Shown here: piece by piece, positions 11,713 to 13,038 of the stretch | Position numbering within the stretch: position 1 is the first letter of the stretch | Layout: each line of letters starts with the position of its first letter | Source: a virus | Lineage: Duplodnaviria; Heunggongvirae; Uroviricota; Caudoviricetes | IMG/VR virus record: IMGVR_UViG_2534681675_000019 | DNA length: 41,266 nt | Direction: 5' to 3' (one strand) | The notes under the pieces: model-generated | Told to the model about the DNA's origin: nothing | The model's database searches: none | The model's input: only the letters and a program-made list of their open reading frames with translations | Program-made: the position numbers and the translations under genes

Positions 11713-11993
11713 TGGCTAACCTGCAACTTGCCGTTAAAGGTGAATACTTCGATGCCATGATTCGCGGGGAGAAAACGGAAGAGTATCGCCTGTGTAATGA
11801 CTACTGGAATAAGCGAATTATGTTCAGGGATTATGACCGACTGATTATCACAAAGGGATATCCGAAGCGCGACGACTCCAGTCGTAGAATTGACGTCCCG
11901 TATGACGGATATGAAATCAAGACAATCACACATCCCCACTTCGGCGATAAACCGGTAAAGGTATACGCGATAAAGGTAAATATTGATGGCTAA
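11712..11993 (+). CDS. ASCH-domain-like protein
   Basis: 93 aa from ATG 11712 (GGAGGTGAGG upstream); MANLQLAVKGEYFDAMIRGEKTEEYR pattern. Confidence 0.45.
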   Translation: MANLQLAVKGEYFDAMIRGEKTEEYRLCNDYWNKRIMFRDYDRLIITKGYPKRDDSSRRIDVPYDGYEIKTITHPHFGDKPVKVYAIKVNIDG

Positions 11994-12324
11994 ATCAGCA
12001 GCAGAGCGCAAAGCCGCTCAGAGAGCCAGACAAGCTGCATCTGGTGTGCGTAAGCTGGAAATTGTGCTTGATGCTCAGGAAATTGAAATGCTTGAGCGTA
12101 ACTGTGCTGCGCGTCGCCCCGGGCGTGCGCCTTACGAATTTTGTGAGTATATAGCGTTACTGATCCGCCAGGATGATGCACGCGTGCGCGGGCGTATAAA
12201 ATCGATCATTAGAAAACGTTGCGGTAAGTGCGGCGAGAGAGTTCCAGTTAATTCATGTCCGTGTAATGGTGACTCACAATGCTGGGTGACTAAAGGCTGG
12301 CATGAAACGAAATTAATAGTGTGA
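11983..12324 (+). CDS. Small ribbon-helix-helix-like, zinc-finger protein (candidate late regulator)
   Basis: 113 aa; RKLEIVLDAQEIEMLERN (RHH-like strand-helix) plus CGKCG...CPCNG...C cysteine cluster; last gene before the terminase-proximal palindrome and terminator. Confidence 0.4.
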   Translation: MMAKSAAERKAAQRARQAASGVRKLEIVLDAQEIEMLERNCAARRPGRAPYEFCEYIALLIRQDDARVRGRIKSIIRKRCGKCGERVPVNSCPCNGDSQCWVTKGWHETKLIV

Positions 12325-12332
12325 CATGTCAC
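12321..12332. promoter_or_regulatory. Perfect 12-bp palindrome GTGACATGTCAC, copy 1
   Basis: Overlaps the stop of the 11983 gene; about 40 bp upstream of an intrinsic terminator and 110 bp upstream of the terminase small subunit. Confidence 0.5.
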
Positions 12333-12372
12333 GAGTAGATTATGCATGATGAATTTGATGGTTTTGAATACT

Positions 12373-12399
12373 GCCGCCAACTATGGCGGCTTTATTTTG
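12373..12399 (+). terminator. Intrinsic terminator between the early region and the packaging genes
   Basis: Stem GCCGCCA/TGGCGGC with loop ACTA, followed by TTTATTTTG. Confidence 0.65.
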
Positions 12400-12441
12400 C
12401 ATGGTACTATTACCACAACGGTAACTATTACCACGGTGGTT

Positions 12442-13038
12442 ATGATGCCTGCTGAACCTAAAACCTATAAACGCAAATCAACGCAATTTAAGCCACTAAC
12501 AGCAATGCAGGAGGCTTATTGCCAGTCATACATCAAAACGCCTGAAAACCAGACTCAGGCAGCGATTAACGCAGGATTCTCCCCAAATACAGCGGCAGTT
12601 AAAGCCAGTGTCATGATGCGCGATGAACGCATTCAAAAACGGATTGCCGAGTTGATGGAGGAGCGCAACAAACGAATGCGCGTCAGTGCTGATTACGTTC
12701 TCATGCGCCTGGTGGAGATCGACCAGATGGACGTGATCGACATCCTCAACGACGATGGGAGCCTTAAGCCAATCCGCGAGTGGCCGAAAATCTGGCGCAC
12801 TACGCTTAGTGGCTTTGATCTGTCATCGACCATCATGAACATGAACGAGGATTCGATAGAGACAATCCTCAAAAAAATTAAATGGCCTGACAAGGTGAAG
12901 AACCTCGAACTGATTGGTAAGCACGTCGACGTCAACGCGTTCAAAGAACGCCTGGATGTTAATGTGAATGTGACAATTGCTGATCGCATAGCGGCAGCCA
13001 GGAAGCGACTCAAAGAACGTCAGGATGGTAATCAGTGA
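12442..13038 (+). CDS. Terminase small subunit
   Basis: Start moved to ATG 12442 (MMPAEPKTYKRK...) because the longer track ORF contains the terminator; ...QEAYCQSYIKTPENQTQAAINAGFSPNTA block typical of small terminase subunits; stop overlaps the large subunit start. Confidence 0.65.
   Translation: MMPAEPKTYKRKSTQFKPLTAMQEAYCQSYIKTPENQTQAAINAGFSPNTAAVKASVMMRDERIQKRIAELMEERNKRMRVSADYVLMRLVEIDQMDVIDILNDDGSLKPIREWPKIWRTTLSGFDLSSTIMNMNEDSIETILKKIKWPDKVKNLELIGKHVDVNAFKERLDVNVNVTIADRIAAARKRLKERQDGNQ

Follow-up and report, generated by a model that had tools for sequence, protein, structure and literature searches.

A widespread ribbon-helix-helix/zinc protein gene with a palindrome at its stop codon, and a predicted repressor-controlled terminase promoter, at the early-packaging junction of a Uetakevirus prophage

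We analyzed the interval between the last early gene and the terminase genes in a 41,266-nucleotide stretch of viral DNA (IMG/VR record IMGVR_UViG_2534681675_000019; this whole stretch is called the window, and all positions refer to it unless another genome is named). Sequence comparison identifies the window as an integrated podovirus of the phiV10/epsilon15 type, genus Uetakevirus: region 11600-12700 is 96-98% identical to the Escherichia Uetakevirus phages phiV10, O157 typing phages 9 and 10, PAS61, and TL-2011b, and the gene order is that of phiV10 and epsilon15. The interval is the junction of the early-rightward operon (replication and accessory genes) with the packaging operon terS-terL. 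A preliminary description had reported a small gene, a palindrome, a terminator, and a pair of direct repeats here, each of which was confirmed in the sequence at its position, but had combined them into one late-control module. The junction is instead made of four separable elements (small gene, palindrome, terminator, and operator-bearing promoter) and is not a single device; the repeats are operators of the prophage repressor Rep, and terS has its own predicted promoter. The operators, the promoter design, and the terminator are ordinary and largely annotated already in epsilon15. The small gene, whose product is a predicted ribbon-helix-helix (RHH) protein with a zinc-binding domain, forms with the palindrome a real, widespread, and uncharacterized pair. 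In our judgment the anatomy of the junction (early operon, then terminator, then a Rep-controlled terS promoter) is likely correct as read from the sequence, and the full account, in which the RHH/zinc protein also serves as a boundary factor, stands at even chances.

The last gene of the early-rightward operon (11986..12324, plus strand; listed as an open reading frame (ORF) at 11983-12324) ends inside a GTGAC-NN-GTCAC palindrome, an overlap that had been noticed before. This site 1, GTGACATGTCAC, spans 12321..12332, contains the TGA stop codon at 12322-12324, and is probably the binding site of the RHH/zinc protein. The sequence GTGACNNGTCAC occurs in three exact copies in the window (starting at 12321, 14585, and 32055) against 0.05 expected, and none of 100 shuffles reached three. 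Site 2 (14585..14596) lies between the end of terL and a convergent 123-amino acid (aa) gene, 4 nt from a minus-strand terminator hairpin, and site 3 (32055..32066) lies 3 nt past the stop codon of the last tail-operon gene, abutting a terminator hairpin and opposite an ant-like gene. Epsilon15 likewise has three exact copies at homologous places; it shares the arrangement of terL end, convergent gene, and hairpin at site 2, and its counterpart of site 3 overlaps the gp18 stop codon. Every palindrome in these two genomes stands at the end of a transcription unit (RHH gene, terL, or last tail-operon gene), 0-75 nt past the stop codon, and what comes next downstream of each palindrome gap is the head of a new operon with Rep operators. 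At sites 2 and 3 the flanking genes converge on a short gap, and a hairpin with a U-tract on one strand only lies 0-4 nt from the palindrome.

The same pairing of gene and palindrome was found across 32 diverse loci carrying homologues of 36-100% identity. GTGAC-NN-GTCAC stands beside the homologous gene in 30 of these and is missing from two; the TGA falls within the palindrome in 24, the palindrome lies 3 nt past the stop codon in two, and in four it is 193-285 nt downstream of the stop, two of these through an inserted extra ORF. The half-sites never vary; the central two bases do (AT, AG, CT, AC, GC, GT, TG, and CC), as do the flanks, and the spacer is 2 bp in the approximately 40 sites seen, barring one 1-bp variant. 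Such invariant half-sites around a variable center and within variable flanks point to a protein that reads duplex DNA rather than to an RNA stem. In N15 the stop codon of gp46 lies inside GTGACTGGTCAC, and in a Yersinia P2-like phage that of gp13 lies inside GTGACGCGTCAC, the only palindrome in that phage; the palindrome is 8 nt past the stop of the homologue in Chlobot and about 230 nt downstream of the homologue in Vibrio phage K233. N15 and K233 each have three exact copies. In K233, the holin operon and the terS operon each have one of these copies in the 5' leader, at a distance of 20-230 nt from the genes; in the holin leader, a terminator stands after the palindrome and just before holin. 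The excess of copies in the window and the recurrence in 30 of the 32 loci support the suggestion, made in the preliminary description, that the palindrome is functional and tied to the gene, and we rate the gene-palindrome pairing, as judged by these comparisons, as having a high probability of being real.

Other readings of the palindrome were considered and rejected. Read against the consensus sites of CRP and LexA, its spacing is wrong. As a promoter, it offers a -35-like GTGACA followed at 17 or 18 nt by a -10-like hexamer in three lineages only (TAAATT, TAACAT, and CATGAT), and the pair is absent from loci L105, L106, and L112-L114 and from sites 2 and 3. As a site for an activator of late promoters it does not serve either, the late operon heads sharing another box, ATATGTGGTT, without the palindrome. 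Several further occurrences of the motif were recorded. A copy with one mismatch, GTGACATGGCAC, at 17629-17640 inside the ORF after the portal gene is probably not functional. The phiV10 record is cut inside the palindrome (L001/L002 junction) and reads GTGACATGTTAC at site 1, with one mismatch to the consensus. On the minus strand of N15, a palindrome at 28550-28561 precedes by 24 nt a TTGACG-17-TAGAGT promoter that has a terminator after it and genes 32-30 beyond, a region that we take to be the antirepressor locus; a further N15 copy lies inside repA at 33237.

The true start of the small gene is almost certainly the ATG at 11986, giving a product of 112 aa, because the homologues are 112 aa long and begin with MAKS. 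The length of 113 aa given in the preliminary description is most likely to be shortened accordingly, and the structure prediction that it had called for does return an RHH fold. From its N-terminus, the protein has a basic helix, then an RHH domain, and, at the C-terminus, a zinc-binding domain with four cysteines (CxxC-x8-C-x7-C). In the AlphaFold2 model (pLDDT 82.5), a basic helix (residues 5-19) is followed by an extended segment (20-29) and two helices (30-42 and 52-75), and then by the cysteine region, of lower confidence, and a short helix; the strand-helix-helix succession that marks RHH proteins of the Arc/MetJ/CopG class is present. An alignment that includes the N15-type and Yersinia-type relatives (32-44% identity) has R8, R13, R43, R44, R47, Y50, and E54 invariant together with all four cysteines. 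The RHH-like N-terminus and the cysteine cluster noted earlier are thereby upheld, and we predict from the model that the protein binds DNA as an RHH protein of the dimeric type and carries a zinc-binding domain at its C-terminus. Pfam holds no family for it, the sole match being to DUF4457 at chance level (E 0.21); a sequence search of the solved structures in the PDB gave no matches, and in PHROGs it matched only phrog_536, labelled transcriptional regulator, and phrog_34005. The best fold match of the model is MatP, and it is weak, and a BFVD fold search returned only one fragment, which belongs to the protein's own family.

This family comprises approximately 220 clusters at 50% identity, nearly all of them stand-alone proteins of 105-135 aa; its carriers are temperate phages of podo-, sipho-, and myovirus type from enterobacteria, Yersinia, and Vibrio. 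A scan of viral contigs with the family alignment recovered near-identical relatives only, and scans with the Vibrio and Aeromonas homologues recovered two and zero loci, respectively; a literature search on N15 gp46 found nothing relevant. To judge by the model, the protein resembles the RHH regulators of the Arc/MetJ/CopG class (P22 Arc, Mnt, antitoxins, and NikR) in its strand-helix-helix core, its basic N-terminal arm, and its probable target, a short palindrome. It differs from them in the added four-cysteine C-terminal domain and in the location of the target, which is the 3' end of its own gene and of other operons and not its own promoter.

An intrinsic terminator at 12373..12399 (plus strand) closes the early-rightward operon. 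Its G+C-rich stem (12373-12390) has seven pairs, six of them G-C, and a loop of four, and is followed by the U-tract TTTATTTTG; it is the only plus-strand terminator-like site within 9000-16000. The hairpin is kept in epsilon15, Tyrion, and PAT1, and a different hairpin occupies the same place in Omnitron and in loci L107 and L112-L115, so that the terminator reported previously proves to be real and held in position among related phages. It would be expected to stop early transcripts. When 12318-12445 was folded as RNA, the terminator hairpin was present and the fold was more stable than those of shuffled sequences (z -3.7); the long-range pairing in this fold involves sequence that is not conserved in epsilon15.

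Downstream of the terminator, the 11-bp direct repeats ACTATTACCAC at 12406-12416 and 12424-12434 are the left parts of two tandem 17-bp palindromes, O1 (ATTACCACAACGGTAAC, 12409..12425) and O2 (ATTACCACGGTGGTTAT, 12427..12443), each with one mismatch to ATTACC-N5-GGTAAT. The equivalent of O1 in epsilon15 is annotated as a protein_bind feature of the repressor, and O2 overlaps the ribosome-binding site and the first ATG of terS. The exact 11-mer repeat is lineage-specific, since the second copy reads ACAATTACCAC or ATTATTACTTC in relatives while the operator half-sites are conserved; the counterpart of O2 is degenerate in epsilon15 and relatives. The repeats had earlier been placed correctly ahead of the terminase and taken for a 5' leader element; the positions stand, and the leader gives way to Rep operators fused to a predicted promoter. 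An RNA leader or riboswitch-like element was rejected, the motif being a DNA palindrome that lies over all operon heads and a search of Rfam giving nothing significant. Terminase pac sites were rejected as well, since the presence of the motif over all operon heads, including those of the immunity region, fits a repressor.

The prophage repressor Rep is encoded at 5570..6154 on the minus strand and is a homologue of SPC32H Rep (PDB 5D50, E 4e-42). Allowing one mismatch at most, we count 10 ATTACC-N5-GGTAAT sites in the window, where 0.03 would be expected, and nearly all of them head an operon. Besides O1 and O2, these are at 5435 and 5497, where the leftward operon begins downstream of the repressor gene; at 6209, between the repressor and the rightward early genes; at 8516 and 8578, before the Holliday-junction-resolvase operon (RuvC in epsilon15); and at 15574, 32424, and 38063, before the portal operon, the tailspike, and the lysis genes, respectively. 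Epsilon15 has 11 such sites at the same mismatch limit in like places, and GenBank annotates most of them as repressor binding, including one 20 nt before terS. We infer that Rep binds O1 and O2. Pairs of operators 62 bp apart, center to center, recur at 5435/5497 and 8516/8578 and, in epsilon15, at 32554/32616 and 35906/35968; each pair flanks a promoter whose -10 hexamer ends in the AT that opens the downstream operator, a geometry that fits one Rep tetramer bridging two sites. SPC32H Rep is described as binding palindromic sites as a tetramer (PMC9638917).

The terS gene (12442..13038, plus strand; Pfam Terminase_2, E 1e-29) starts at 12442 or 12445, in agreement with the annotated terS starts of epsilon15 and Tyrion and with the ribosome-binding site GGTGG. 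Ahead of it lies a predicted extended -10 promoter of terS-terL, TGgTACTAT (12402..12410, plus strand), which has TG one base upstream of the -10 hexamer, as is typical of such promoters, a class that can work in the absence of a -35; its last AT forms the first two bases of O1, and transcription would start near 12417. TGnTAnTAT is found in 90 of the 90 loci with this type of terS (22 sequence variants, including some with differing upstream contexts), and TG, TA, and TAT are invariant in all of them. The same fusion of -10 element and operator occurs at two canonical promoters of the window, TTGATT-17-TTTAAT/TACC before 8597 and TTGACA-17-AATTAT/TACC at the leftward operon, where the stroke marks the point of fusion. 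Two things count against this promoter: the hexamer is matched at four of six positions only, with no -35 element, and part of the conservation of TGnTAnTAT is due to its overlap with the operator. On balance terS-terL is very probably under its own Rep-controlled promoter with a start near 12417, to the extent that sequence can tell, and read-through of the terminator is then not needed for its expression.

The window thus matches the SPC32H Rep/Ant system and the epsilon15 annotation in having a Rep homologue, an ant-like gene preceded by a LexA box, and 17-bp palindromic operators at the same operon heads. It differs from epsilon15 in that its terS head has two good tandem operators, giving rise to the 11-bp direct repeat, and the fused promoter TGnTAnTAT is a prediction of the present analysis that is not annotated in the records examined.

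Some observations bear on the surroundings of these elements. In the RefSeq record of phiV10, the terS coding sequence (NC_007804.2, position 41; window ORF 12346..13038) begins upstream of the terminator, so that as annotated it would be translated through the terminator and the operators. In some relatives a umuD-like gene under an SOS box (TTGACT-17-TATACT overlapped by CTGT-N8-ACAG) lies between the palindrome and terS (L009 1780-2250, L011 1780-2190, L102, and L108 5541-6002); these loci have no terminator and retain both the promoter and the operators of terS. A perfect LexA box, CTGTATGTTTATACAG, at 32370-32385 precedes the minus-strand ant-like gene (32091-32363; PHROG 450, with a weak match to the antirepressor PHROG 1760), and box and gene match the SOS-controlled antirepressor scheme described for SPC32H. 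The box mentioned above, in the form ATATGTGGTT, ATATATGGTT, or ATATGGTT, occurs at the heads of four operons: resolvase (8564-8573), portal (15632-15641), tailspike (32470-32479), and lysis (38114-38121). A Rep operator precedes it by 29-41 nt and, except at the lysis head, another operator or half-site follows it at 4-5 nt. Epsilon15 has kept the box, the terS head lacks it, and it may be a shared promoter element or factor site of late operons. A tRNA-Arg gene (anticodon TCT; 15176-15252, minus strand), oriented against the late genes, occupies part of the space from terL to the portal operon.

The preliminary description had suggested that, with no Q-type antiterminator recognizable, this arrangement may exert late-gene control by a different mechanism. 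That no Q is recognizable holds good for the early-rightward ORFs, none of which gave a Q-type protein against PHROGs in a scan that did not extend to every ORF of the window; a literature search on late transcription in Uetakevirus found nothing relevant. Late control by the small protein does not fare as well. Rep operators and promoter-like elements stand at the head of every one of the terS, portal, tailspike, and lysis operons, the family member gp46 coexists with the Q-like gp40 in N15, and the member in the Yersinia P2-like phage coexists with an Ogr ORF and with Ogr-type late promoters that have no palindrome. A generic role of the family as a late activator is unlikely because the late operons have operator-bearing heads of their own and because the family coexists with Q and Ogr. 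In Yersinia phage vB_YenM_31.17, the Ogr-like zinc-finger ORF is unannotated and lies after gpD at about 32430-32650 on the plus strand (MMHCPRCKFAAHARSSRYL...), and the late promoter regions contain TGT-N12-ACA elements. With this separate ORF and these promoters in place, a role of the RHH/zinc protein as the P2-type late activator of that phage was rejected. The protein is akin to the Ogr/Delta activators of P2-like phages in being small, zinc-binding, and phage-encoded; its cysteines are spaced CxxC-x8-C-x7-C, compared with CxxC-N22-CxxxxC in Ogr/Delta, it has no Pfam Ogr_Delta match, and the palindrome bears no relation to the TGT-N12-ACA sites of Ogr, found around position -55 of late promoters.

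The mechanism that we favor would work as follows. In the lysogen, Rep bound at O1 and O2 would cover the -10 element, the start site, and the ribosome-binding-site region, keeping the terS promoter silent, and would also block transcription arriving from upstream. In SPC32H, Rep is reportedly inactivated by an antirepressor under LexA control; if the same happens here, the terS promoter would fire unaided, and the other structural operons and the lysis operon, which carry the same operators, would each be released in the same way. As the final product of the early operon, the RHH/zinc protein would then bind the palindromes that close the early, packaging, and tail units at their 3' ends. There it would serve as a boundary factor in both directions, a protein roadblock next to terminators that work in one direction only, and would prevent neighboring or convergent units from running into one another. 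More broadly, the PHROG 536 protein could act on elongating RNA polymerase from a DNA site at operon ends, whether as a roadblock terminator or insulator or as a DNA-loaded, promoter-independent antiterminator that replaces Q, an idea we put forward tentatively and at less than even odds. The analysis shows directly the elements with their enrichment and conservation, the link between gene and site, and the class of fold; promoter activity, binding of the protein to the palindrome, and above all the direction of the protein's effect we infer from sequence features.

A boundary role is suggested by the position of the palindromes at unit ends next to Rep-controlled heads and by sites 2 and 3, which lie between convergent genes beside a U-tract that serves one side only. 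Three observations speak against a roadblock. In K233, palindromes in the holin and terS leaders would make a roadblock shut off late genes, a placement that suits antitermination better; no terminator is present in N15, Chlobot, or the Pantoea-type prophages, where the palindrome directly adjoins the ribosome-binding site of the gene that follows in the same direction; and at site 1 a strong terminator already follows, so that a roadblock looks redundant. We accordingly regard the roadblock direction of the effect as doubtful.

The K233 leaders bring up the main rival, an antiterminator of Q-like or ops-like kind, in which the protein binds the palindrome as DNA and passes to RNA polymerase, which then resists the terminator, so that early transcription enters terS-terL and, at sites 2 and 3, crosses untranslated gaps in the late region. 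The order of regulator gene, site, terminator, and late genes is that of lambdoid Q modules (Q gene, PR' with the Q-binding element, tR', and late genes), in which the regulator is also small, zinc-containing, and the last early gene; lambda Q contains a zinc site. The early genes scanned hold no Q homologue, a terminator lies within about 60 nt after the palindrome in 10 of 30 genome loci, all three window sites are where the plus-strand late path enters an untranslated gap, and the promoter-like GTGACA pair of the three lineages could be added to this list, as could the terminator right before holin in K233. Unlike a lambdoid Q module, however, the present system shows no homology to any Q family, its late operons have their own repressor-controlled promoters and need no read-through, no conserved promoter lies over the site (the candidate being absent from the loci listed above and from sites 2 and 3), and the site recurs at operon ends rather than at a single late promoter. 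At site 2, moreover, the palindrome precedes a terminator only for the minus-strand gene, and antitermination there would run antisense into terL. The family also coexists with Q in N15 and with Ogr in the P2-like phage, and we know of no RHH protein that rides on RNA polymerase. We judge this rival to be unlikely, if worth keeping in view; a Q-replacing antiterminator in Uetakeviruses is possible, and nothing here requires it.

A different rival makes the protein a non-transcriptional organizer like MatP, which would bridge or anchor phage DNA or interfere with host MatP and matS. The matS site is GTGAC-RNY-GTCAC, 13 bp long (PMC3603311), and its half-sites are identical to GTGAC/GTCAC of the palindrome; the copies are few per genome and stand in weakly transcribed gaps between convergent genes, and true matS motifs are avoided in prophages. 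The spacer, however, is 2 bp in a 12-bp site, compared with 3 bp in matS, and homology of the protein to MatP, which we rejected, is not detectable by sequence (hhalign probability 0.15%; no Pfam MatP match). In the model, the four-helix bundle and coiled coil of MatP are absent and a zinc region and short helix stand in their place. An organizer would not need sites that hug stop codons, integrating phages, plasmid prophages, and P2-like phages all have members of the family, and, as distinct from MatP/matS, the protein is phage-encoded and its site lies on the stop codon of its own gene. The likeness is a resemblance and not membership, and we consider an organizer improbable. Finally, the stretch around 12313-12397 could be a small RNA gene or a terminated transcript (lambda 6S/StxS-like), with the repeats as pac sites of the terminase. 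A sub-threshold Rfam match to rseX, an Hfq-binding small RNA, spans exactly 12313-12397, from palindrome to terminator, the region folds better than shuffled sequences, and pac sites often lie near terS. The rseX score of 29.6 bits (E 0.06-0.15) is nevertheless far below the gathering threshold of 50 and probably owes most of its value to the terminator and to sequence rich in A and U. The stretch from palindrome to terminator is conserved neither in length nor in content (23 nt in epsilon15 against 40 nt in the window), the half-sites are conserved as sequence and not as compensating pairs, which argues for recognition of duplex DNA by a protein, and the distribution of the repeat motif again points to the repressor and not the terminase. 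We hold this last reading to be highly improbable.

For this phage group the analysis corrects the picture of late gene control: to judge by the operators and the predicted promoter, the packaging genes are apparently under direct repressor control from a promoter of their own rather than governed by a cascade of the Q type. A testable pair of protein and DNA site is defined as well, the site sharing its half-sites with host matS. Should the protein be only an RHH regulator of local genes, the finding would be an ordinary one; should it control transcription where operons end, whether by stopping it or by letting it through, it would represent a novel type of phage device for marking the boundaries of transcription units.

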